Positions 39,471 through 64,000 of a stretch of DNA of 64,000 bases are shown in pieces. The first letter of the stretch is position 1. Each line of letters begins with the position of its first letter. Below the pieces are notes generated by a model. It did not search any database. It saw only the letters and a program-made list of their open reading frames with translations, and had not been told where the DNA came from. A program made the translations under genes and the position numbers. Source of the stretch: Escherichia coli (GTDB lineage Bacteria; Pseudomonadota; Gammaproteobacteria; Enterobacterales; Enterobacteriaceae); NCBI RefSeq assembly GCF_002854065.1, contig NZ_CP024147.1. One strand, given 5' to 3'.

Positions 39471-39812
39471 TAAGTTCTGAACCTTCTTATCAAAAATAGA
39501 TGTGAAGGATTAAGTAAGACATCTGGCAAATAGCCCGCAATAAACGCGGGCTGTTTGCTTCCTTGGGCGGATACGAGTTTTATTATCGTCTTAATGATTT
39601 CCACATATTAAAAGCAAGTATGCTTTCAAAACACAATTATAAAAAATCCCACCAACAATATAAGTTTTTATAAAATTAAATATAAGATTATGACTTTAGA
39701 ATATTTTTATTTCTAATAGACGAGATTTTTCCTGTTATGATATAATATGCCGAATTAACACATGTTAACGATTTACCAGTAATGTAAATAAATTTTCGAG
39801 GAGATCATTCCA

Positions 39813-40529
39813 GTGGGACGTAAATGGGCCAATATTGTTGCTAAAAAAACGGCTAAAGACGGTGCAACGTCTAAAATTTATGCAAAATTCGGTGTAGAAA
39901 TCTATGCTGCTGCTAAACAAGGTGAACCCGATCCAGAATTAAACACATCTTTAAAATTCGTTATTGAACGTGCAAAACAGGCACAAGTTCCAAAGCACGT
40001 TATTGATAAAGCAATTGATAAAGCCAAAGGCGGCGGAGATGAAACATTCGTGCAGGGCCGTTATGAAGGCTTTGGCCCTAATGGCTCAATGATTATCGCC
40101 GAGACATTGACTTCAAATGTTAACCGTACGATTGCTAACGTTCGCACAATTTTCAATAAAAAAGGCGGCAATATCGGAGCGGCAGGTTCTGTCAGCTATA
40201 TGTTTGACAATACGGGTGTGATTGTATTTAAAGGATCAGACCCTGACCATATTTTTGAAATTTTACTTGAAGCTGAAGTTGATGTTCGTGATGTGACTGA
40301 AGAAGAAGGTAACATTGTTATTTATACTGAACCTACTGACCTTCATAAAGGAATCGCGGCTCTAAAAGCAGCTGGAATCACTGAGTTCTCAACAACAGAA
40401 TTAGAAATGATTGCTCAATCTGAAGTTGAGCTTTCCCCAGAAGATTTAGAAATCTTTGAAGGGCTTGTTGATGCCCTTGAAGATGACGACGATGTACAAA
40501 AAGTTTATCATAACGTCGCAAATCTCTAA
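39813..40529 (+). CDS. yeeN: YebC/PmpR-family transcriptional regulator YeeN
   Basis: 238 aa, GTG start ([13 protein letters not shown]…); conspicuously AT-rich codon usage. Confidence 0.85.
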
Positions 40530-40649
40530 TTATATTTTAAAGAAATCTGTCTTTATGGCAGATTTCTTTAATCTCATATAATCCTTATAAAAAATATAAT
40601 GTTTAACTCGTCATATTGCTTATAAAAAATCCCCGGTAATGACTCCAAC

Positions 40650-41153
40650 TTATTGATAGTGTTTTATGTTCAGATAATGCCCGATGACTTTGTCATGCAG
40701 CTCCACCGATTTTGAGAACGACAGCGACTTCCGTCCCAGCCGTGCCAGGTGCTGCCTCAGATTCAGGTTATGCCGCTCAATTCGCTGCGTATATCGCTTG
40801 CTGATTACGTGCAGCTTTCCCTTCAGGCGGGATTCATACAGCGGCCAGCCATCCGTCATCCATATCACCACGTCAAAGGGTGACAGCAGGCTCATAAGAC
40901 GCCCCAGCGTCGCCATAGTGCGTTCACCGAATACGTGCGCAACAACCGTCTTCCGGAGCCTGTCATACGCGTAAAACAGCCAGCGCTGGCGCGATTTAGC
41001 CCCGACGTATCCCCACTGTTCGTCCATTTCCGCGCAGACGATGACGTCACTGCCCGGCTGTATGCGCGAGGTTACCGACTGCGGCCTGAGTTTTTTAAAT
41101 GGCGGAAAATCGTGTTGAGGCCAACGCCCATAATGCGGGCGGTTGCCCGGCAT
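40650..41153 (-). CDS. insB: IS1 InsB' (expressed as InsAB' transposase by -1 frameshift at the A6C motif)
   Basis: 167 aa ORF recognised as IS1 InsB; an AAAAAAC slippery site (reverse strand) lies in the insA/insB overlap near 41090. Confidence 0.9.
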
Positions 41154-49495: not shown

Positions 49496-50520
49496 ACCGA
49501 CTCCTGATTCAAATGTATGATGGTATTCATTGAACAGAACAATGGATCCCCCACCGTTGCTGACCGCAAAACATTTACGCGATTAATACTGCGCGTAATA
49601 TAATTAAAAATCCAGCATTCTCAATCCATTACGAAATAAGATGGCATTACGGAATAGCCAGACTTTCTCGTGTTAACGTCCGACAAAATGCGTCATTGAC
49701 AGCGGTTTCTGTGGATTGACACATTTCATTCAGATAATGAATTAATGCTACTGCCGGAACAACCAGCAAACGGGCATTGTGTTCTGAAATCCAGGCTATT
49801 GATTCAACGTCAGCGACAGATCTGCGCTGTAAAAGAACTTGTAAAACAACGTAATAGAATTATCCGGAATGGTGGCGACTATGCACTAGAACACCACAAT
49901 TTCGCTCTCTCGGTAAGGCACTGTCACAGCATTCAACAGAATGTGACTTGCCAGATTTATTAGCGCCACCAGATGTTTAACCGGGTAACCACGACCCAGT
50001 CGGGGATATATTCCATCTTCTCGCTGACATCATCAAGAATAAAAAGGTTTATCACACTCAGAGCAACGTTCTTCAGCAGGCGGGATAATTCTTCAACATT
50101 TAGAAGATGTGTTATTAAAGGCATACAAACTGGACGTATTGTATTTTCTTTTGGTGGTTGACCTAAGGTAGCAGTTTATCCTGATGCGCTGAGATTTCTG
50201 TAATATCTACGTCAACATTCTCCTCGAATAGAAAATGCAGCCCCGGCAAGTGATTCACATTTTTTAACAAAACGTTGTTAGCGTGCCATTTTCAGAAGCT
50301 CTCCAAGAAAGCGAATTCTTTTCTCAAATTCTGCATTCTCAGACACAGCTTTCTACTCCATGGTAATGGCCCAAATACGAAGTTGCTCAGGATCATTAGT
50401 GGTGCTGAGAAGTTAAATAACCATGCGGAGTACCACTCGTCATCACGTATTTATATATCATGAAGCTATTGTTGTGTTTTGTACATCAGTAGATATATTC
50501 TGATATACTCCTTTTGCTAG

Positions 50521-51715
<1,195 letters not shown>

Positions 51716-54159: not shown

Positions 54160-55332
54160 TCAGGCCTTATGGTGGAAATAATCACTCAGGCGGGAAAACA
54201 TGCCGCCTTCCCCGACAGATTCCAGGGTAACCAGCGGCCAGTGCGCCACCTGTTTATCACGGTCGTAAAGTTCAATTTCCCCTACCCGCTGATGGGCGCT
54301 AATTGGCGCGGTGAGCTCTTTACCATCAAGGGTATATTTGGCTTTGATATGTGGAATTTCGGCTTTCGGTAGCACCATCCAGAACTCTTGTTCCGTTCCC
54401 AGGTCGATATTTTCTTTATCGCCATACCAGATGCGTTCCGTTCCGACCTTTTTCCCACGGTGCAAAATTTGCACCGTAGTAAAGTTTTGTTGCCCCCAAC
54501 GCAGTAATTTTCTTGCCTCTTCCTCACGACCTTTTGCACTGTCAGCCCCCATTACCACTGCAATGAGACGACGCTGCCCATCTACAGCCGAAGCAATGAG
54601 ATTAAACCCGGCACCAGAAGTATGACCCGTTTTCAGGCCGTCAACATTCATGGTTTTATCCCACAACAACCCGTTACGGTTTTGCTGGGTGATACCGTTC
54701 CAGGTGAGACTTTTCTCACTGTACATATGATAAAACTCGGGCTCGCCGTGGATGATAGCGCGAGAAAGCACAGCTAAATCATAAGCCGAGCTATGCTGGC
54801 CAGGTGCATCCAGACCATGCACTGTTTCAAAATGCGTATCCTTGAGATGCAGCTTCTCGGCATAGTTGTTCATCATTTCAACAAACTGCCGTTGCCCACC
54901 GGCAATATAGTCAGCCAGAGCAACACAAGCGTCATTTCCGGAATCCACAATTAAACCACGGCTTAAATCACGTACCGATACGCGATCGCCCTCTTTCAAA
55001 AACATCAGTGAAGAACCGACAAACACCGGATTATCTTTCGCCCACGCATCGCGCCCCACGGTGACAATATCGTCTGGCGTAATGCGATGACTATCGATAG
55101 CGCGATCCACGACATAACCCGTCATCAGCTTTGTCAGGCTGGCGGGATTGCGCTGTTGATGCTCATTACCCGCGGTGAGGATCTGTCCGGTGGTGTAATC
55201 CATCAGTACCCAGGACCCGGCTTGAATCTGTGGAGGCTGAGGTGAAAAAGGAATGTTTTCCGCCGCAAAACCAGACGATAAGTTAAAAACGAACAAAGAA
55301 GCAGCAATAATAAGACGGCGTTTCAACAGCAA
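54160..55332 (-). CDS. dacD: D-alanyl-D-alanine carboxypeptidase DacD (PBP6b)
   Basis: 390 aa with signal peptide and S11 peptidase motifs (SxxK: ASLTK; SGN). Confidence 0.9.
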   Translation of the reverse strand: MLLKRRLIIAASLFVFNLSSGFAAENIPFSPQPPQIQAGSWVLMDYTTGQILTAGNEHQQRNPASLTKLMTGYVVDRAIDSHRITPDDIVTVGRDAWAKDNPVFVGSSLMFLKEGDRVSVRDLSRGLIVDSGNDACVALADYIAGGQRQFVEMMNNYAEKLHLKDTHFETVHGLDAPGQHSSAYDLAVLSRAIIHGEPEFYHMYSEKSLTWNGITQQNRNGLLWDKTMNVDGLKTGHTSGAGFNLIASAVDGQRRLIAVVMGADSAKGREEEARKLLRWGQQNFTTVQILHRGKKVGTERIWYGDKENIDLGTEQEFWMVLPKAEIPHIKAKYTLDGKELTAPISAHQRVGEIELYDRDKQVAHWPLVTLESVGEGGMFSRLSDYFHHKA

Positions 55333-56045
55333 ACCCTCAGGAGTTTCAAATAGCTGTTCTTTTTACGGAAATACTTATGAACTGGCTGGAATAAAGTGCA
55401 AGAAAATGTGACTACCCTAGCATTTTTATCTGACATGATCTGTTGCCACTCGCTGCCAAATTGTGGCGCTAAAGCTGATTAGCACGGTGATATTTGATAC
55501 TCTGGCAGACAGCAGAAATAACGGATTTAACCTAATGATGAATGACGGTAAGCAACAATCTACCTTTTTGTTTCACGATTACGCGCAACACCCCTGAGAA
55601 CCGCCATGAATAAGGGTTTCATGATTTGTGATTTTAGTTTGGTACGCAATTTGGTACACAACACAATTTTCACTTCAGCGGGTAGTCATCAAACTCACCA
55701 TAACGAGCATCGTTGATGATGTATGTGATCACCACAAATATCACATCTGGACTAGTTCCGTCTTCATGCGCAGGTATCTGTTCACGCCTCCCTTTCTGCA
55801 AATCCTAAAGATGAGATTTTGGGGTTTTGGGATATCTTTTTATCCTCAGTTCTCTATCCATTCTACAAAGCAGTAATGAACCATCACTATGTGATAGTGA
55901 GGCATCCGCTACATTAAGCGCAGAGAAATGATGCAGTGGTGGTCGGACTGGATTGATGAAAAGGTGTGATCGGTTAGCGCAAGACGAATCACCACCCTCG
56001 CCAGTTTTGAGTTGTTTTGCGCTAATTTTTTACCCCACCTCTGCC

Positions 56046-56076
56046 CCATCAAAAGAAAACCCGCTCTAGCGGGTTC
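56046..56076 (-). terminator. Terminator hairpin immediately downstream of the acyltransferase gene
   Basis: On the minus strand, AACCCGCTAGAGCGGGTT hairpin followed by TTCTTTTG, right after the stop at 56082. Confidence 0.5.
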
Positions 56077-56081
56077 ATGTC

Positions 56082-57152
56082 TCAGGCCTCTTTGCCCTTC
56101 TCTATCGCTGAGGGCTTGTCAGGAAGCAATGCGCTTATACGTCCCTTAAGGTACTTGTACATTCTGACGTCGATGAATGCTGCGTATAAATACGCTAGCA
56201 CTATCGAGACAGCAATCATTTTTACCGCCCCCATAAATGGATCTCCCTCAACAATACCGGTAATCATCACAGGGAAATGGAGAAGGTACAGAGGGAAGCT
56301 GATAAACCCTAAAAACTGGACTGGTGCAGAGTAAAGGAACCGTTTAACCAGGGACTCATCATTCATGTAATCGACAGTTAGCAGGGGAAGAAATGCCACC
56401 ATGTAGAAATAATCCATCCTGTTGGTATGCGAAGGTTGAGCATAGAGCCCGGCAAAGCATACAAACAGACACATAGCCAAAAAAACATTCTTTTGAGGTA
56501 GTTTAGTGAAACTCTCGTACCATTTTAATTTTATGATCGAGTACATACCCGATCCCATCAAAAGACATGATGATGCAAAAACAAAATTGTACATCCCGAA
56601 AAGCTCTGGACTACCGAGCCCTCTGGCAGAAACAACAGCCAGATAAATAAATGCCAAAATAGAAATACATAACCTTGAAAGCGGCCCCATTCTCAAGAAC
56701 AGAACTGGAATCAACATGGACGCCCAAAATTCTATGCTGACACTCCACGAAGGTTCATTTATCAAATTGAATGATAATGGGGTAGACCCATGTATAAATG
56801 CTAAATTCGCTACCCATGTCCTGATACTAAATACGTAATCACCTGGCACATAACCACCATTAAGGCTATTTACGTAGTAAATGATTACCATTATCACTGA
56901 TGATATAAAGGTAAGAGGCCACAGTCTTGCCAGTCTATTCAAAAAATATGACGGGATAGACGCCCCATTTCTTACTGAGTGGGTAAGCACAAATCCCGAT
57001 ATGATGAAAAAATATGCAACAGCCAAGTGAGGGCCGTTGAATGGCCCATCATTTTTCCAACCAGTAACAGCATTGATGGCGTGATTTAGGAGCACTGCGC
57101 ATGCAAAAAGGCCGCGCAAACCATCAACAGCATAGAAGCGTTTAATTTCCAT
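56082..57152 (-). CDS. Acyltransferase family 3 integral membrane protein (OafA/Oac-like; candidate surface-polysaccharide O-acetyltransferase)
   Basis: 356 aa, about 10 transmembrane segments, N-terminal AVDGLRG…H motif typical of acyltransferase_3; lies downstream of tail-fibre genes where phage conversion genes commonly sit. Confidence 0.7.
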   Translation of the reverse strand: MEIKRFYAVDGLRGLFACAVLLNHAINAVTGWKNDGPFNGPHLAVAYFFIISGFVLTHSVRNGASIPSYFLNRLARLWPLTFISSVIMVIIYYVNSLNGGYVPGDYVFSIRTWVANLAFIHGSTPLSFNLINEPSWSVSIEFWASMLIPVLFLRMGPLSRLCISILAFIYLAVVSARGLGSPELFGMYNFVFASSCLLMGSGMYSIIKLKWYESFTKLPQKNVFLAMCLFVCFAGLYAQPSHTNRMDYFYMVAFLPLLTVDYMNDESLVKRFLYSAPVQFLGFISFPLYLLHFPVMITGIVEGDPFMGAVKMIAVSIVLAYLYAAFIDVRMYKYLKGRISALLPDKPSAIEKGKEA

Positions 57153-57271
57153 AACAATTTATTTAAAAAAAGAAAAATTATACTAGAAATATATCATCAA
57201 CATCTATGCCATTGATGATTAAGTGATGGTTGTCACGGTTTTGTGTTTCTGGCTGGAATGCTGGCAGTGCT

Positions 57272-57460
57272 TTACTCGCTTGACTCAGGATCGGTGAATA
57301 CTCCATCTTCATAAATCCATCCAATTCTGCATGGTATTCCGTCTATTTTAACAACCTGATAATCATCAAAAATATGCCCCTCACCATCCCATATAACAAT
57401 ATTTACAACTATTCCATCTGTAATTAATGCATATCTCATGCAAACTCCTCCACAAGACAA
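57272..57460 (-). CDS. Hypothetical small protein downstream of the tail fibre (possible tail-fibre-associated protein)
   Basis: 62 aa ORF overlapping the 3' end of the tail-fibre gene by 25 bp; no recognisable family. Confidence 0.3.
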
Positions 57461-58362
57461 ATACCATCAGCACCTTCACCACCATAAAAACGCGTGGAGA
57501 AGACCTGCGTGTCATATGCGCCAGCGCCGCCACCGCCAGGGACTAATGCTTTCGCAATTCTCGGTGAATATACAGTACACTGCCCCGCTCTTCGGCTGCC
57601 ACCCCAAAAGCTTGAACCGCCGTACCCATTAAGGAACCTAGTATTATTTTGGCCATCTCCGCCATCTCCGCCGGCTAGATTTACATCACCACCAGACCCG
57701 GCAACTCCAACGCCGCCTGATGCATATACAGTGGAAGCAGTGGACGGGTTTCCGCCTGTGGCAACCATCCCACTAAATGTTGAGTTACCGCCTTTTGTTG
57801 CCTCAGTTCCGCCAGCACCGATAACCACGGCAAAGTTTGTGATGTCAGCAATATTGAACCATTTGATACCTGTAGCGCCTGCAGCCCCCCCAGCACCGGA
57901 AAAGTTATCGGTTGGGGAACCACTATTAAAAGCGCCACCTCCGCCACCACCCCCTCCCGTTAGAGTTACTTTGATGCGCTTCGTCAGCGGGTTTAGCGTT
58001 ACTGTTTTTGATGAGGTGATCCACTGCTCGGCAATCTTCCTACCTACGTATCCGTTGGTATCTCCCAAATCAAGGTTTGCGAGAGCCGTTTTCACCGTGC
58101 CATCCGATTTGATATCGCCAAACGGATTCTTGCGGCTTAACAGCAGAGCACGAAGCGCGGTAAGCAACTGGTCGTGCCGCGCCTTCTCCAGACTGGCACC
58201 AGATGCCTCAACAACGCTACAAAGTTCTTCCTGCAACATGTCAAAGTAGTCATCATCCAGATCGGTGGCAGGCGTGCCAGTCTGGGGGTTACCACGGGTA
58301 AAACCGTTCTTACCCGCGCCGAACTTATCCTTCTGCGCGGTTTTCGTGTCTATACGATGCAT
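57436..58362 (-). CDS. Phage tail fibre protein (Gly-rich)
   Basis: 308 aa; conserved phage-fibre-like N-terminus then Gly-rich repeats including GGGGGGGG, at the fibre position of the module. Confidence 0.65.
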
Positions 58363-58365
58363 GGA

Positions 58366-58950
58366 TTACTCCGGATATTTAAAAATTACGTAGGTATGCG
58401 ACGGGCAGAGTTTGTTAAGCACACACTCGACAACGGTGTCGCCCCAGATACGCAGTGCGGAATCACAGGGATCGCCACATGTCATCCAGGTGGTGTTGGT
58501 GGTGGTTGGCATGTTGACATGCCAGTAATACCGCCATTCCGGCGCATTCACCGCGTCAGTACAGGCCGATGAGCAGGTGAACGTGCTTTTGTCGTATCGC
58601 GTGATGGTGGCATCTGGTCTGCCCAGGGCAGCAAGCTGTGCAAGATAAAAATCCTCGTTGATGCCGCCCGCCAGGTTAACCTTCGCATCCAGCCGTTGCT
58701 GACGCTGGCGAAGGGTCTGCGTTCCCGCCGGAATACATTCATCCGGCAGACCGCACAGACGCTCCCAGCGGTTTATCAGTTCAGTGGTGGTGCGCGGATC
58801 CAGCTCCCGCATCAGGGCATCCGCACGCTGATGAACACGGGTTAATGACGGTGCCGCACCGGCAATCGCCGGATCGCTGGCTGACCACGCCGGACCGGGC
58901 GGCAACAGTGCCGATAACAGGCGGATGTAATCATCGTTTGTCACGTCCAT
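58366..58950 (-). CDS. Phage tail protein, YmfQ / Mu gp48-like (DUF2313)
   Basis: 194 aa ([22 protein letters not shown]…), positioned between the baseplate J gene and the fibre gene. Confidence 0.6.
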
Positions 58951-59999
58951 GAAATCGTCCCCAGTACCGCCAGTTCGTTTTTCGCAATGGAGATATTGTC
59001 CACCGGTGCAAGCAACTGATGGCTGTATTCCCCGTTCGCACCGGAAATCGCCTCACTGATACGCGACACCTTCAGTTCTCCCTGCGGATAACCATCACGC
59101 AGCAGGAACGAACGCAACTCCGCGGTGATGGCAGCCCGTATTTCCGGTGTATCCGGCGTCACGCGGATATGAAAATCCACCGTATGTGCCACCGGCCTGA
59201 ACACATACAAGTCAGAACCTGCCACCGGGGCCAGTGGCCCGATATGTTGTATTGCCGCCGTTTCCGTTGATTCTTCCGGAATGGGATTAATCAGGTCACT
59301 GCTGGCAATCATCACACCGACAGTTCCCGTTCCCATCCAGTGACGGTATGTCCATGCGCGGGTAATGCCGGGCACTTCTTTAGCCCAGACGACATAGTCC
59401 CCGTCAGCCCCGCCCTGCGGCGTCCAGTAATACCGCTCAATGACGCGGGCGCGCCACGTTTCCAGATCTTCAGTATCGAATCCGCCAGTCAGGGTATCTG
59501 CAACACCGGAAGACGGCAGACCATTCACCGGCGTGACTAGGATTAATGCCGTACCGTCGTCAGCGTTACCGACCGCGCCTGCATTTGAGCAAGTGATCGG
59601 CACACGCAGGACACCACCGGAGCTGGTTGCATCGGCAGTTGCCGTGTACTGAACCAGGTCATCGCGCTGAATCACGCTCCCGGCAGTCACCTTCAGGCCA
59701 TCGCTGACACCTTCCCAGCGCATATACCCGCTGGCAGCCGTGGCCCCCTTGCGCGGACACCGTTTCATCGCAGCATGTCGCGCCAGCCAGGACTCATCGC
59801 ACAGGTCAGGCAGCATATTCATTGCCAGATAATCGATGTACCCGTAGACCGTATGCAGCGCCGCCGCATACACCTTTGCCCGCACGTCTTCATCCATGCG
59901 CCGGAGCGTGTTGCTGACGTCCAGCCTGGCGAATAAATCGTTACGGAGCATACTGATATTTTCTGCCAGCGTCGGGCGCTGAAATTCACTGTCCGCCAT
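58941..59999 (-). CDS. Baseplate J-like protein (Mu gp47-like)
   Basis: 352 aa with baseplate_J family features; overlaps neighbouring genes. Confidence 0.7.
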
Positions 60000-60414
60000 G
60001 CGTTATCGCACTCCACAGATCATCAAAAGAAATCATTACCGGTCCGTCACGACGCCAGAGAGTGATACTGTTACCCAGTTCATTAATCCCGGTACGGCGG
60101 ATATCCAGATCAATACGGGACACCACGCCGTCATCAATCATCCATTGCAGGCATTCGCGGATATATCCCCTTACCGTCTGCACCAGCTGATTGGTCAGTT
60201 TGCTGCGCTGAAGCAGCCACAGTCGGGAGCCGTAACGGTCATTCTGTACCGCAGGCCAGGTATCCCCCCACCATCCCATCGGGACGTCGGCGTTGTCATC
60301 AGGCTCCGCCCGCCGCCAGGTAAACAGGGAAATCACCACGGCGCGGGTCAGCGGATCCAGCGGTGCGCTGGCGCAGGTGCGTTTACCGTTCACCGTCAGC
60401 CACAGTTCCATCAT
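59986..60414 (-). CDS. Phage GP46-family baseplate protein (Mu gp46-like)
   Basis: 142 aa, position and size as for Mu gp46. Confidence 0.55.
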   Translation of the reverse strand: MMELWLTVNGKRTCASAPLDPLTRAVVISLFTWRRAEPDDNADVPMGWWGDTWPAVQNDRYGSRLWLLQRSKLTNQLVQTVRGYIRECLQWMIDDGVVSRIDLDIRRTGINELGNSITLWRRDGPVMISFDDLWSAITHGGQ

Positions 60415-60959
60415 GCCTCCATCGCTTTATCAGGTTTGTCGGTGTTACTGCCCTGACCGTTCTCTCTGTGACGATGCCCGTTATAGGCAAGCCGCATCGC
60501 TGACATGGTGGTGCCGCCGGAGTCGCACAGGTCTTTCACCTGTCCGGTCACTTCCAGGTCCATTTCAAAACGTGCTTTAGGTGAATTGCGAAACGTGATC
60601 GTTTTACCTGCACCGTCCACCACGATCCCCTCCCGGGTCAGCGTCACGGACTGCCCCTGATCGTCATAGACAGCCACCTCACCCGTCTGCAGCCCTTTCA
60701 GGCGGTAGCGCCGGTCCGACACCGTAACAACCACCGCATGAGAACGGTCGCCATCCGGAAACAACACCACCGCTTCCGCACCGCTGTTTGCCCTTGCGGT
60801 AAAACCGTAGGGTTCAAGATGTTCAACCCCGGCTTTGGGTTCACCGGCAATCAGGGACACATCCACGGTCTGACATTTCGTGGCGGCACTGATGCTTTTC
60901 ACCACGGCCCGCCCAATCAGGCCGAGGAGTTGTCGCTGCATGGCTTCAATCGTCCTCAT
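60411..60959 (-). CDS. Baseplate assembly protein V / spike (Mu gp45-like)
   Basis: 182 aa; gpV-type OB-fold N-terminus; 4-bp overlap with the downstream gene. Confidence 0.6.
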   Translation of the reverse strand: MRTIEAMQRQLLGLIGRAVVKSISAATKCQTVDVSLIAGEPKAGVEHLEPYGFTARANSGAEAVVLFPDGDRSHAVVVTVSDRRYRLKGLQTGEVAVYDDQGQSVTLTREGIVVDGAGKTITFRNSPKARFEMDLEVTGQVKDLCDSGGTTMSAMRLAYNGHRHRENGQGSNTDKPDKAMEA

Positions 60960-62038
60960 CAGAACGGGTCCTCCTGTACTCTGGCTTTTTTCTTTTTCCG
61001 CGCGCCGGGGGCTTCGGGTTCAGGCAGATAAGCATCAGGTGGGCCGACACGGATTTCCGTCAGGGTGCCGTTCTGGTCCTGAGTAAACGTGACTTCCGAA
61101 ACAAGCAGTTCGGTATTGTCGAAACCACAGACCGGATCAAAGACAATCACCCGCTGGTTGGGCTGCCACAGCGTACCGTTACACTGTCGCCAGCCCTGCA
61201 CCACATAGGTGGTTTCATCCGTCCGCGCCGCCCGTTGTCTGGCTTCAAAGTCCGCACGGGCAATACAGCCTGCCCCCGTAGCCTGCCCTGTCTGCCTGAT
61301 ATACATCGGACGGTAACGGGCAATAAATGCGTCCTCTGTGCGGGCCCGCAGCGCGGTGGTGGTGGCCTCACCGAAATCATCGTCGTTTCCGGCACGCTGC
61401 CCCGCCACCTGGTAAACAGAAAACCGCTCCCGGATACTCTTCTCCGTATCGCAGGAAAGGATGTTTTCCCCGAGTACCAGCGCAGTATGTGCCCGAGTTG
61501 AGCCAATACCGCCAATCACCAGCCTGCCGTGCGGGTCGTCGTAAGCCAGTGCCTGCTGCTGACCGAGTATTTTGTTGATTACCTCAATCACCGTTTCACC
61601 GTGATCAGGCTGAACATCAGGAATAACACCCGACGGCGCACCGCTGTTCACCACCTCAATGCCGAAAGGCGCAGCAAGCGCCTGCGCAATCTGCACCAGC
61701 GAGCGTCCGTTAAACTGTGTCGGTTCGGCTGCACAGTCAATCAGGTCAGCCGTCAGACTACGTCCGACAATACCGGTGCTGACCGAACGGGAATCGTAAC
61801 GAACGGGCGTCGCCTCCACCCAGCCGGTGATCACCAGCTCATCACCAATCAGCACTTCCACTTTTGAACCGTTTTTAATGCGCGGCTGAAGCGTGGTGAT
61901 ACCCTCATCTCCCGGCCACTGGCGGGTGATCTCCACACTGAAATCCCGCGCCAGCCGTTCAATACCGGCACCGATGCGCACCGATGTCCAGCCATTCCAC
62001 TCCCGGCCATTTACCCGTAGCGTGACATTGTCGTTCAT
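60959..62038 (-). CDS. Mu P-like tail/baseplate hub protein (Mu gp44-like)
   Basis: 359 aa (MNDNVTLRVNGREWNGW…), position and length as for Mu P. Confidence 0.6.
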   Translation of the reverse strand: MNDNVTLRVNGREWNGWTSVRIGAGIERLARDFSVEITRQWPGDEGITTLQPRIKNGSKVEVLIGDELVITGWVEATPVRYDSRSVSTGIVGRSLTADLIDCAAEPTQFNGRSLVQIAQALAAPFGIEVVNSGAPSGVIPDVQPDHGETVIEVINKILGQQQALAYDDPHGRLVIGGIGSTRAHTALVLGENILSCDTEKSIRERFSVYQVAGQRAGNDDDFGEATTTALRARTEDAFIARYRPMYIRQTGQATGAGCIARADFEARQRAARTDETTYVVQGWRQCNGTLWQPNQRVIVFDPVCGFDNTELLVSEVTFTQDQNGTLTEIRVGPPDAYLPEPEAPGARKKKKARVQEDPF

Positions 62039-63375
62039 TGCACTGGCACCTTCAGAGGGATCACCGGCACAAAGCCGGGATGCGTAATGGCATTACGCCG
62101 GATAATGTCCGCGTCACGCGCCGCGTTATCAAACCAGGTCGCCGCCAGCACCAGCGCGGGTAAAACCTCATCCGGTGTGCGCTGAATGATCCGTGCAGAC
62201 TGTTCAAGGCGCGTGTTGATATCCGCATTCAGATCTGCTTTCACCCGGCGCAGCGCCAGAAACAGCGCATCACTGGTTGTACGGGACAACTCCTTATCAA
62301 TTGCCGTATTCAGTGTGTCGCGAATGTCAGTCAGTTCTTCCCACGTCGGCAGGTCAACCGTGTTTTTCACCGCCGGTGCATTGTTCAGTGCCGGATGCGT
62401 GACGGAAGGCCAGCCAGTGCTCTGCGCGGGTGTTGTTGCCTGCCCCACTGCGGCATTCTGCATCACCGCGGAAGTTGTTGGCGCAGGCAATCGGGTGACG
62501 GCATACGCCGCTTCGCTGATTGCGGTCGTACGAAGGGTGCTGGCAACCACGTTACGCTGCTGCGTCGCCGTGGCGGTGGTTTTACTGTCCGTTTTCCAGA
62601 CGCCGCGCGGTTGCAGATCGCTGCCGAGGCTGACACCGGAAAGCGTTTTGATCATGGTGACCAGGTCGCTGGCGTTACCATAAAGGCGTTTCCCGGTACG
62701 CCACATTTTCTGCACCTGCTCAACGAAATTTTTGCCTGACGATGGCGGCGGCAGAAGTACCGAGATATCCCCCTGCAACAGCCTGGCGGCATCCGATACG
62801 GCAGAATCCACCACTTTCATCGCATCAGAAACATACCCCAGCATTATGCTGGCATTACCGATAACGTCGTTCTGCACGAAATCCGCAACACCATCGATAC
62901 TGAAACCGCTGAAGCTGTCACTGATGCAGTCATCCAGTGCAGAACAGGATGACATCAGCGTCTGCGCCGTCGCCGCACCTGATGTGGGGTAAGAGAGTTC
63001 TCCTGCTTCGACAAACTTCAGGTCAAAGCGGACAATACGCCCTTCACTTTTCGATGTGCTGACCCGAACTTCCCCGTCAACACAGACTTTCAGCTCACCA
63101 TATGTCGGGTGGACAAGCGTGCCTGGACCGGGTTTATTCAGCGCGTCAATCAGGCGATCGCGCTGGTCAAAGCAGTCATCTCCCACCACATAAGCTGTGA
63201 TGGACGGGCGGAAAGTGATTTTCCCCAGGTCTTCGGTATAGGGTTTGTCGCGGTTTGGGTATTCATGCGTTTCAACCCGACGTCCTACCGGGGCCCCTTC
63301 ATCTTCTACCTTGAACGGAACGCCGCGAAACGACGCTTCAACCAGTCTGTCTTTCCACGCCATTGTCTGCACCAA
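62035..63375 (-). CDS. DNA circulation protein N-like tail protein (Mu gp43-like)
   Basis: About 440 aa with conserved N-terminal …ASFRGVPFKVE…; start is ATG at 63363 or upstream TTG/GTG at 63375/63372. Confidence 0.6.
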   Translation of the reverse strand: MVQTMAWKDRLVEASFRGVPFKVEDEGAPVGRRVETHEYPNRDKPYTEDLGKITFRPSITAYVVGDDCFDQRDRLIDALNKPGPGTLVHPTYGELKVCVDGEVRVSTSKSEGRIVRFDLKFVEAGELSYPTSGAATAQTLMSSCSALDDCISDSFSGFSIDGVADFVQNDVIGNASIMLGYVSDAMKVVDSAVSDAARLLQGDISVLLPPPSSGKNFVEQVQKMWRTGKRLYGNASDLVTMIKTLSGVSLGSDLQPRGVWKTDSKTTATATQQRNVVASTLRTTAISEAAYAVTRLPAPTTSAVMQNAAVGQATTPAQSTGWPSVTHPALNNAPAVKNTVDLPTWEELTDIRDTLNTAIDKELSRTTSDALFLALRRVKADLNADINTRLEQSARIIQRTPDEVLPALVLAATWFDNAARDADIIRRNAITHPGFVPVIPLKVPVQ

Positions 63376-63465: not shown

Positions 63466-63523
63466 TTTTGCCGTTAATACTGGGTTTGTTGCTAGCCGTT
63501 TTCATAGGACGGTGGGCTTGGTA
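63466..63523 (+). pseudogene. 5' fragment of a plus-strand gene interrupted by IS1 (hydrophobic N-terminus MEMFLPLILGLLLAVFIGRWAW)
   Basis: Strong SD AAGGAGAGG 6 nt upstream of the ATG at 63466; the frame runs into the IS1 end where TAA is created at the junction. Confidence 0.35.
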
Positions 63524-64000
63524 ATGACTCCAACTTATTGATAGTGTTTTATGTTCAGATAATGCCCGATGACTTTGTCATGCAGCTCCACCGATTTTGA
63601 GAACGACAGCGACTTCCGTCCCAGCCGTGCCAGGTGCTGCCTCAGATTCAGGTTATGCCGCTCAATTCGCTGCGTATATCGCTTGCTGATTACGTGCAGC
63701 TTTCCCTTCAGGCGGGATTCATACAGCGGCCAGCCATCCGTCATCCATATCACCACGTCAAAGGGTGACAGCAGGCTCATAAGACGCCCCAGCGTCGCCA
63801 TAGTGCGTTCACCGAATACGTGCGCAACAACCGTCTTCCGGAGCCTGTCATACGCATAAAACAGCCAGCGCTGGCGCGATTTAGCCCCGACATAGCCCCA
63901 CTGTTCGTCCATTTCCGCGCAGACGATGACGTCACTGCCCGGCTGTATGCGCGAGGTTACCGACTGCGGCCTGAGTTTTTTAAGTGACGTAAAATCGTGT
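63521..64000 (-). mobile_element. IS1 insertion sequence (partial; continues past the window end), same orientation as the IS1 at 40635
   Basis: Starts with GGTAATGACTCCAACTTATTGAT and is near-identical to 40635-41114 over the visible 480 bp; encodes the InsB' C-terminal portion (63535-63912 ORF). Confidence 0.9.

Follow-up and report, generated by a model that had tools for sequence, protein, structure and literature searches.

The gene at positions 56082-57152 (minus strand) of a 64,000-nucleotide (nt) stretch of Escherichia coli DNA (NCBI RefSeq assembly GCF_002854065.1, contig NZ_CP024147.1; hereafter the window) is an intact, ATG-initiated open reading frame (ORF) for a membrane acyltransferase of 356 amino acids (aa), consisting of an acyltransferase 3 (AT3) domain only and carried near the right end of a prophage. 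Its product is probably a lysogenic-conversion O-acetyltransferase, encoded as a moron and acting on the O52-type polysaccharide, an acceptor to which the co-distribution of the gene with O52-type O-antigen clusters points. A sequence-only reading of the window had proposed the gene as a candidate for lysogenic conversion; this proposal is supported by a hidden Markov model (HMM) match and a distinct base composition, and the comparative evidence points to an O antigen as the acceptor.

Family, catalytic motifs and predicted fold

By alignment, the product of 56082-57152 is a member of the AT3 family with the full set of conserved catalytic motifs. Pfam Acyl_transf_3 (PF01757) matched residues 7-322 at E = 6.4e-23, covering model positions 2-323 of 326, and PHROG 3333, annotated as 'O-acetyltransferase', matched at E = 2e-34. 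The motifs were R13-X10-H24 in the first transmembrane helix (TMH1), FFIISG at residues 48-53, R73-x-x-R76 (the RXXR motif ahead of TMH3), W136-S-x-x-x-E141 and G200 (the invariant glycine of TMH6). In an alignment of 48 sequences that included Oac of phage Sf6, residues F48, F49, S52, G53, R73, R76, W136, E141 and G200 were invariant, and conservation of R13 and H24 was at least 90%. Four of these positions (H24, F48, G53 and G200) are the counterparts of the residues H25, F41, G46 and G202 (OafA numbering) that are invariant across 31 characterized AT3 acetyltransferases (PMC7448272), and the R-X10-H and RXXR motifs are essential in OafB and Oac (PMC9833829). All close homologs share the start M-E/K-I/V-K/S-R-F-Y-A-V-D-G-L-R-G. 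The string AVDGLRG...NH, on which the sequence-only reading had based its assignment together with a multi-transmembrane architecture, is the R13-X10-H24 motif of TMH1, and the PF01757 match bears the assignment out.

The AlphaFold2 model was all-helical (pLDDT 91.9, pTM 0.91) with a short low-confidence tail at residues 347-356, and an approximate count gave roughly 10-11 hydrophobic segments, in keeping with the ten-helix AT3 fold. The top structural matches of the model in AFDB50 were all Acyltransferase 3 proteins (TM score 0.7-0.96), and a search of solved structures by sequence returned chance matches only. Acyl_transf_3 was the sole Pfam match; no SGNH domain and no 11th helix were found in the 356 aa, which makes the protein Oac-like (AT3-only) and not OafA-like. 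The earlier label 'OafA/Oac-type' is thus kept for its Oac part and dropped for its OafA part. The gene encodes an AT3-only inner-membrane O-acyltransferase whose transferred group is most likely acetyl.

Transfer of another acyl group, such as succinyl (as in OpgC and IcaC) or a longer chain, to the O52-type polymer or to another glycan is improbable. The AT3 family does include succinyltransferases and other acyltransferases (PMC9558356). Donor specificity, moreover, is unreadable from the conserved motifs. Against such a donor, O52 is not known to carry non-sugar substituents other than O-acetyl and a terminal methyl group. The characterized AT3-only enzymes borne by phages, Oac, OacB, OacC and OacD, are likewise acetyltransferases (PMC4206707; PMC9558356).

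Co-distribution with O52-type O-antigen clusters

Among 5426 complete E. coli genomes the acyltransferase gene was found in two, and both belong to the only four that carry O52 wzm/wzt (2/4 O52 genomes versus 0/5422 other genomes, uncorrected for phylogeny or phage host range). The backbone of the window at 30000-52000 was 100.0% identical to the two carrier genomes, and its identity to the other listed genomes did not exceed 98.3%. The complete genome with AUJ96512.1, a protein identical to that of the window, also has the gene for WbrW (AUJ96545.1), an O52 glycosyltransferase.

WbrW was used as a probe for O52-type clusters in other genera. The family is rare: 104 clusters were returned at E <= 1e-20 among 5.8 billion. 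Two strains of Enterobacter roggenkampii carry WbrW at 90% identity or more together with the acyltransferase at 99% (WCF41942.1/WCF42151.1 on CP116249.1, and MGU0198046.1/MGU0198188.1). The corresponding values were 71% and 75% in Cedecea sp. FDAARGOS_727 (both on CP050966.1), 68% and 68% in Yersinia frederiksenii (both in sequencing sample ERR024932) and 69% and 55% in Izhakiella australiensis (both with locus-tag prefix BTJ39). All named close homologs (55-99% identity), from E. coli, E. roggenkampii, Cedecea, Y. frederiksenii and Izhakiella, were genome-mates of an O52-type cluster. Kluyvera contributed a WbrW in the cluster at 90% or more and fragments only of the acyltransferase, from different Kluyvera species and not from the same genome; the Methylobacterium proteins were distant on both sides (WbrW 33-36%, acyltransferase 25-28%) and also not from the same genome.

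A paralog with 48-51% identity is found at the equivalent place in a related E. coli prophage with a Mu-like tail, integrated at yfdC; the paralog was absent from all complete E. coli genomes. In an O52 strain of the NCTC collection (GCA_900449015.1, UGBN01000001.1, 3313770-3330504) this paralog is divided into two ORFs (244 and 126 aa), either by a real frameshift or by a long-read assembly error. The NCTC strain may be the one in which the O52 structure was determined. Another isolate pairs the paralog (ELU5593314.1) with WbrW (ELU5593273.1).

The O-antigen cluster of E. roggenkampii CP116249.1 (1609518-1630846) and that of E. coli 100416 O52 shared 98.97% identity across 16.4 kb and agreed in gene order, a similarity that indicates recent inter-genus transfer of the O52-type locus. 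The genes of the O52 cluster specify glycosyltransferases, sugar-nucleotide pathways, Wzm/Wzt and a methyltransferase, and no acetyltransferase gene was found among them. The O52 O unit (D-fucofuranose, D-Fucf, and 6-deoxy-D-manno-heptose) is reportedly partially O-acetylated, in work of Feng and colleagues from 2004. A search of the accessible literature returned no paper linking E. coli O52 to an acyltransferase.

That this AT3 subfamily acetylates the O52-type polysaccharide is the most economical reading of these findings. Several observations weigh against it. The remaining two O52 genomes (EC24 and MEI4BO-21) are of the same lineage, lack the gene and have an empty attachment site, and the E. 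coli carriers in the complete-genome set are one clone and so count as one event. No named WbrW accompanies the homologs at 40-45% identity (Sodalis, Acetobacter, Klebsiella, Shimwellia). NCBIfam has no equivalog for the protein. Identity to Sf6 Oac is 20% (pairwise E = 3e-4), so the two are not orthologs, and tblastn of GenBank phages at E <= 1e-5 returned only Caulobacter and Halomonas phages and one unclassified phage (24-29% identity), with no Shigella phage among them. A consensus scan found no canonical sigma-70 promoter upstream of the gene, its single match lying inside the coding sequence. Finally, the co-distribution could mirror phage host range, as a fiber tip that binds O52 would give any cargo the same pattern.

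This last point leads to an alternative in which the AT3 enzyme works on another envelope glycan (enterobacterial common antigen, the lipopolysaccharide core, peptidoglycan, osmoregulated periplasmic glucans or capsule) and the O52 link reflects phage host range only. The gene is physically linked to the fiber tip, which is itself possibly O52-specific, AT3 enzymes act on many glycans besides O antigens (PMC9558356), and the acceptor is marked by no sequence feature. We consider this alternative unlikely. The O52 association spans three unrelated fiber types (Gly_rich_2, a P2-type fiber with Caudo_TAP, and a 229-aa fiber with TAP), it persists in relics that have lost the phage, and the identities of the acyltransferase and WbrW drop roughly in parallel across genera. 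At E <= 0.001 the only NCBIfam match was a weak one to SucT (19 bits versus a cut-off of 1275), the presence of models for the housekeeping enzymes WecH and OpgC in the library being unchecked. The O52 cluster also lacks the acetylase that the reported O-acetylation would need. Acetylation of the O52-type polysaccharide is the preferred reading.

Cassette, prophage and expression signals

The acyltransferase gene lies downstream of a tail-fiber gene (57436-58362, minus strand; 308 aa; PHROG tail-fiber families and Pfam Gly_rich_2) and of a 55-aa ORF (57272-57439, minus strand) whose start overlaps the fiber stop codon (ATGA) and which was called in all related loci. The N-terminal part of the fiber is a baseplate-attachment domain, and the glycine-rich C-terminal part corresponds to about 57436-58040. 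The fiber tip, the 55-aa ORF, the acyltransferase and its terminator make up a mobile cassette (55919-58040, minus strand) that is 95.2% identical at the nucleotide level to E. roggenkampii over 2106 nt; the Cedecea locus is 73% identical over 57664-55974. Only the C-terminal ~205 aa are common to the E. coli and Enterobacter fibers, and the E. roggenkampii prophages with the cassette are built on another chassis, which has genes for Arc and a P22-type antirepressor and a fiber N-terminus of its own. By these alignments, the glycine-rich C-terminal part of the fiber is exchanged as a unit with the acyltransferase. The acyltransferase follows a fiber or a chaperone in four different prophage backbones; in Y. 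frederiksenii the gene (68% identity) comes after the fiber and Caudo_TAP chaperone of a P2-like prophage.

The 55-aa product differs from the Enterobacter copy at 1 of 55 residues, persists in the Cedecea relic, where the phage is gone and the C-terminus of the product is changed, and matched only PHROG families of unknown function. Because a Caudo_TAP chaperone fills its slot in the Yersinia and paralog prophages, it may be a small fiber chaperone. It is unlikely to be a partner of the AT3 protein, since an insertion sequence (IS), IS1, removes its start in strain 100416 and Caudo_TAP takes its place elsewhere. In PADLOC, the acyltransferase, the 55-aa ORF and the fiber matched no defense system.

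The acyltransferase was identical at the protein level in dozens of E. coli assemblies, always in the same context. A second allele, present in strains CUWW06 and 100416, has 87.5% nt and 91% aa identity to the window allele. The prophages of the two alleles are otherwise 97-99% identical, with divergence confined to about 56000-57400, and the chromosomes of the window and CUWW06 are 100.0% identical over 22 kb despite a synonymous divergence (dS) of 0.57 between the alleles. The window allele is nearer to the E. roggenkampii gene (97.9% nt) than to the other E. coli allele (87.5%). The two alleles arose either by localized allele replacement or by two separate lysogenizations by sister phages. 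The ratio of nonsynonymous to synonymous divergence (dN/dS) was 0.08 for the pair of E. coli alleles and 0.06 for the comparison with the E. roggenkampii gene (overall range 0.06-0.10, at dS up to 0.57), values that place the gene under purifying selection.

An IS1-mediated deletion in strain 100416 runs from the start of the 55-aa ORF to a truncated integrase and has left the acyltransferase intact. In the Cedecea relic, only an IS3, the small ORF and the acyltransferase (75% identity) remain, beside thrS. The pattern of a gene outlasting its prophage, which had been suggested for the window itself, is thus seen in the relative 100416 and in Cedecea, and not demonstrably in the window. It is highly improbable that the gene has no present function, being passenger DNA or a remnant in decay that has survived beside IS elements by chance. 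The window prophage is indeed interrupted by IS1, a canonical promoter and a Shine-Dalgarno sequence were not found, and the paralog of the NCTC O52 strain is split in two. Against this stand the dN/dS values given above, the integrity of all catalytic residues, and the full-length frame in dozens of assemblies and in the two independent relic contexts of 100416 and Cedecea.

A wider interpretation, which we put forward tentatively, is that the fiber tip, 55-aa ORF and acyltransferase constitute a portable recognize-then-modify cassette dedicated to the O52-type polymer. Such a cassette would have followed the O52-type cluster across Escherichia, Enterobacter, Cedecea and possibly Kluyvera, being grafted onto unrelated chassis; the acyltransferase would be the missing O52 acetylase, and the two alleles (dS 0.57 within one clone) would reflect repeated reacquisition.

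The G+C content (GC) of the acyltransferase gene was 42.4%, compared with 56.8% for the tail genes (57436-63375) and 48.3% for the adjacent host genes, and GC at third codon positions was 44% compared with 61-64% in the baseplate genes. Relative synonymous codon usage (RSCU) of the gene correlated at 0.03 with the host genes and at -0.16 with the baseplate genes, whereas host and baseplate genes correlated at 0.68. As 13% of the 1071-nt windows within the 64 kb were equally or more AT-rich, the gene is foreign to its neighbors, yet no extreme outlier. The sequence-only reading had judged by eye that the gene is AT-richer than the baseplate genes, had given it a terminator of its own at 56046-56076 and had placed it at the end of the tail module. 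The first point is borne out by GC (42.4% versus 56.8%) and codon usage (RSCU correlation -0.16), the second by a hairpin and T tract at 56076-56047, and the third by the position downstream of the fiber and the 55-aa ORF.

The terminator was found by scanning as an intrinsic-terminator-like hairpin with a T tract (56047-56076, minus strand), directly past the acyltransferase stop codon. Its stem-loop at 56076-56057, GAACCCGCTAGAGCGGGTTT, has 8 pairs (5 of them G-C) and a loop of 4 and is followed by TCTTTTGATG; the terminator lies inside the block common to the E. coli prophage and E. roggenkampii. Three more terminator-like hairpins with T runs were seen in the 5′ part of the coding sequence (57039-57017 and 56968-56951 on the minus strand, and 57031-57047 on the plus strand); with a total of 4 hairpins compared with 2.7 +/- 1.6 in shuffled sequences, these three are probably due to chance.

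Upstream, a perfect match to the -10 hexamer, TATAAT (57177-57182, minus strand), lies 24 nt before the ATG and is a candidate promoter element. It is kept together with the preceding TTGATGAT in E. coli, Enterobacter and Cedecea, the Cedecea locus being 73% identical overall. The consensus promoter scan did not call this TATAAT (57182-57177), with which no recognizable -35 element is associated, and no Shine-Dalgarno sequence was found ahead of the ATG. A search of 55300-58500 against Rfam at E <= 0.1 returned nothing. Expression of the acyltransferase in a lysogen is plausible in view of the conserved hexamer. The gene has the features of a moron: a prophage site outside the core modules, foreign composition, its own terminator and, as the only promoter signal, the conserved TATAAT.

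The window is E. coli chromosome in the order yeeX(tmaR)-yeeA-sbmC-dacD, followed by the first 16 codons of sbcB and then by prophage DNA. The prophage is lambdoid with a Mu-like tail and is integrated in the 5′ end of sbcB. The native 5′ end of sbcB (first 16 codons; 55535-55583, plus strand), cut off by integration, identifies the right attachment junction; its translation reads MMNDGKQQSTFLFHDY, beyond which it diverges. The intact sbcB of lysogens lies beside the integrase and opens with another 5′ end that the phage has provided, MTDADKQPTFLFHDYETFG, and the native sbcB promoter and first 16 codons are left beside dacD. In strains EC24 and MEI4BO-21 the attachment site is empty and sbcB abuts dacD. 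Mu-type transposition was ruled out as the cause of the sbcB disruption by the site-specific junction, the 16 native codons left behind and the new 5′ end supplied.

The acyltransferase is not the last feature before the attachment site, as a humD relic and the sbcB 5′ end lie beyond it. The relic, of a UmuD-like S24 peptidase (about 55670-55920, minus strand), lies between the acyltransferase and the junction, and the equivalent position in strains 100416 and AST19 is annotated as a frameshifted S24 peptidase/HumD pseudogene. Its region is 98% identical in many E. coli with other prophages at the site, for example the unrelated P22-like prophage of AST19, and there too the relic sits beside dacD. 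It appears to be either a right arm that has been conserved or what is left of an older resident.

On the other side of the fiber gene lies a Mu-like baseplate module (58366-63375, minus strand) of gp48, gp47, gp46, gp45 and gp44 homologs and a DNA-circularization/hub protein (PHROG baseplate families at E = 1e-42 to 1e-172; Pfam Phage_Mu_Gp48, Baseplate_J, GP46, Phage_Mu_Gp45 and DNA_circ_N). An IS1 copy (63519-64000; InsB-like ORF 63535-63912) interrupts the prophage upstream of this module and runs off the window. It cuts the prophage 144 nt upstream of the DNA-circularization gene, prophage homology ends at 63519, and the element is 98.8% identical to the IS1 of CUWW06. In several draft assemblies with an identical acyltransferase the contig ends at the same IS1 point, which suggests that the insertion is a lineage marker. 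The same prophage is apparently complete in strain CUWW06, where the early genes are lambdoid, the head is of HK97 type, the contractile tail is Mu-like and the integrase gene lies beside sbcB.

Elsewhere in the window, an IS5 copy (50667-51647, minus strand) lies directly upstream of yeeX(tmaR), and the 1.2 kb just ahead of this copy (about 49500-50700) has a low GC of 39-43%. In related O52 strains the stretch from cobU to IS5 is annotated with IS1, IS4 and cobalamin-gene fragments, and beyond IS5 the strains EC24 and MEI4BO-21 carry a CP4-44-like island; the IS5/yeeX locus is heavily rearranged by IS elements. The lowest GC of the window (34.8% over 1071 nt) occurs at about 39601-40700, overlapping ORFs at 39813-40529 (plus strand) and 40650-41153 (minus strand).

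Proposed mechanism and comparison with known systems

In the proposed mechanism, acetyl-CoA would enter the pore of the protein from the cytoplasm and be held by R13 together with R73/R76, as suggested by modeling of Oac and OafB (PMC9833829; PMC9558356) and by the structures of HGSNAT. Its thioester would reach H24 near the periplasmic face, and the acetyl group would be passed to a sugar hydroxyl of the exported, undecaprenyl-linked polysaccharide. The acceptor would be the O52-type O polysaccharide of E. coli, a polymer of D-Fucf and 6-deoxy-D-manno-heptose of the Wzm/Wzt pathway. Because O52 is made by the ATP-binding cassette (ABC) transporter route, the enzyme would meet a finished, exported, lipid-linked polymer, which would fit non-stoichiometric acetylation; modification would take place in the periplasm, once the polymer has been exported and either before it is ligated or at about that time. 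Lysogenic conversion would then alter the receptor of the phage itself, leading to superinfection exclusion, and would change the O-antigen epitope. The movement of the enzyme gene with the receptor-binding fiber tip suggests that the phage receptor is the same polymer. Protection of lysogens from superinfection, as by Sf6 Oac, is a conjecture by analogy.

Prophage-borne AT3 O-acetyltransferases are a textbook route of serotype conversion, and the class of the gene is unsurprising. What is new is a specific candidate O-acetylase for the E. coli O52 antigen, whose cluster itself lacks an acetyltransferase, along with natural gene-positive and gene-negative strains within a single clone. Both the O-antigen cluster (99%, 16.4 kb) and the fiber-modifier cassette (about 95%) are common to E. 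coli and E. roggenkampii, and this sharing illustrates how phage genes for receptor recognition and receptor modification may travel along with their glycan target. If the proposed function is correct, the protein would be a further AT3-only enzyme acting on a polymer of the ABC-transporter pathway and would bear on the way in which AT3-only proteins, lacking a partner SGNH domain, gain access to their acceptors.

Among solved structures, the nearest fold was that of human HGSNAT (PDB 8vlv, 8vli and 8jkv; Foldseek probability 1.0, TM score 0.44-0.48). HGSNAT is likewise a transmembrane acetyltransferase with acetyl-CoA on one side of the membrane and a glycan acceptor on the other. It differs in sequence (13-14% identity), in length (about 200 residues longer) and in being a eukaryotic, lysosomal enzyme that N-acetylates the glucosamine of heparan sulfate.

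Salmonella OafA and OafB (GtrC family II) share the AT3 domain, the R-X10-H and RXXR motifs and O-antigen acetylation, and OafB is also prophage-borne, in BTP1 (PMC7448272, PMC9558356). Unlike the protein described here, which stops after AT3, they are AT3-SGNH fusions of at least 600 aa with an 11th helix, in which the periplasmic SGNH domain carries out the final transfer.

OacC of Shigella flexneri serotype 6 is an AT3-only O-acetyltransferase whose function was proven by deletion and complementation, and its gene comes directly after the tail genes of an SfII-like prophage; that prophage has a Mu-like tail, has partly decayed and is bordered by IS elements, much as in the window (PMC4206707). 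The nearest relatives of OacC outside Shigella are from Pseudomonas, Dechloromonas and Flavobacterium, at 28-39% identity (PMC4206707). The SfII-like tail module and the IS elements raised the possibility that the gene is oacC or oacD. This identity was ruled out, as oacC lies in another chromosomal context with IS630/IS629 upstream, identities in the phage tblastn were 29% or less, and the window is chromosome of the O52 clone. No S. flexneri protein was present among 49 homologs of the acyltransferase. The comparison with Sf6 Oac and the phage tblastn gave no close relationship to the characterized Shigella Oac, OacB, OacC and OacD, OacB and OacC not having been aligned directly.

Oac (OacA) of Sf6 confers serotype conversion and superinfection immunity (PMC9558356). 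It is AT3-only and of similar length (333 aa compared with 356 aa), and its FFxISG, R73/R76 and W-x-x-x-x-E motifs align residue for residue with those of the acyltransferase. Like the gene in the window, oac neighbors the gene of a receptor-binding tail protein and lies toward the integrase/attachment end of its temperate phage; oac has its own annotated promoter and terminator. The phages differ, Sf6 being a P22-like podovirus with a tailspike, while the window prophage encodes a Mu-like contractile tail with a fiber. The acceptors would differ as well: Oac acts on a rhamnose-containing O unit made by the Wzx/Wzy pathway, whereas the acceptor proposed here is made by an ABC transporter and consists of D-Fucf and 6-deoxy-D-manno-heptose.

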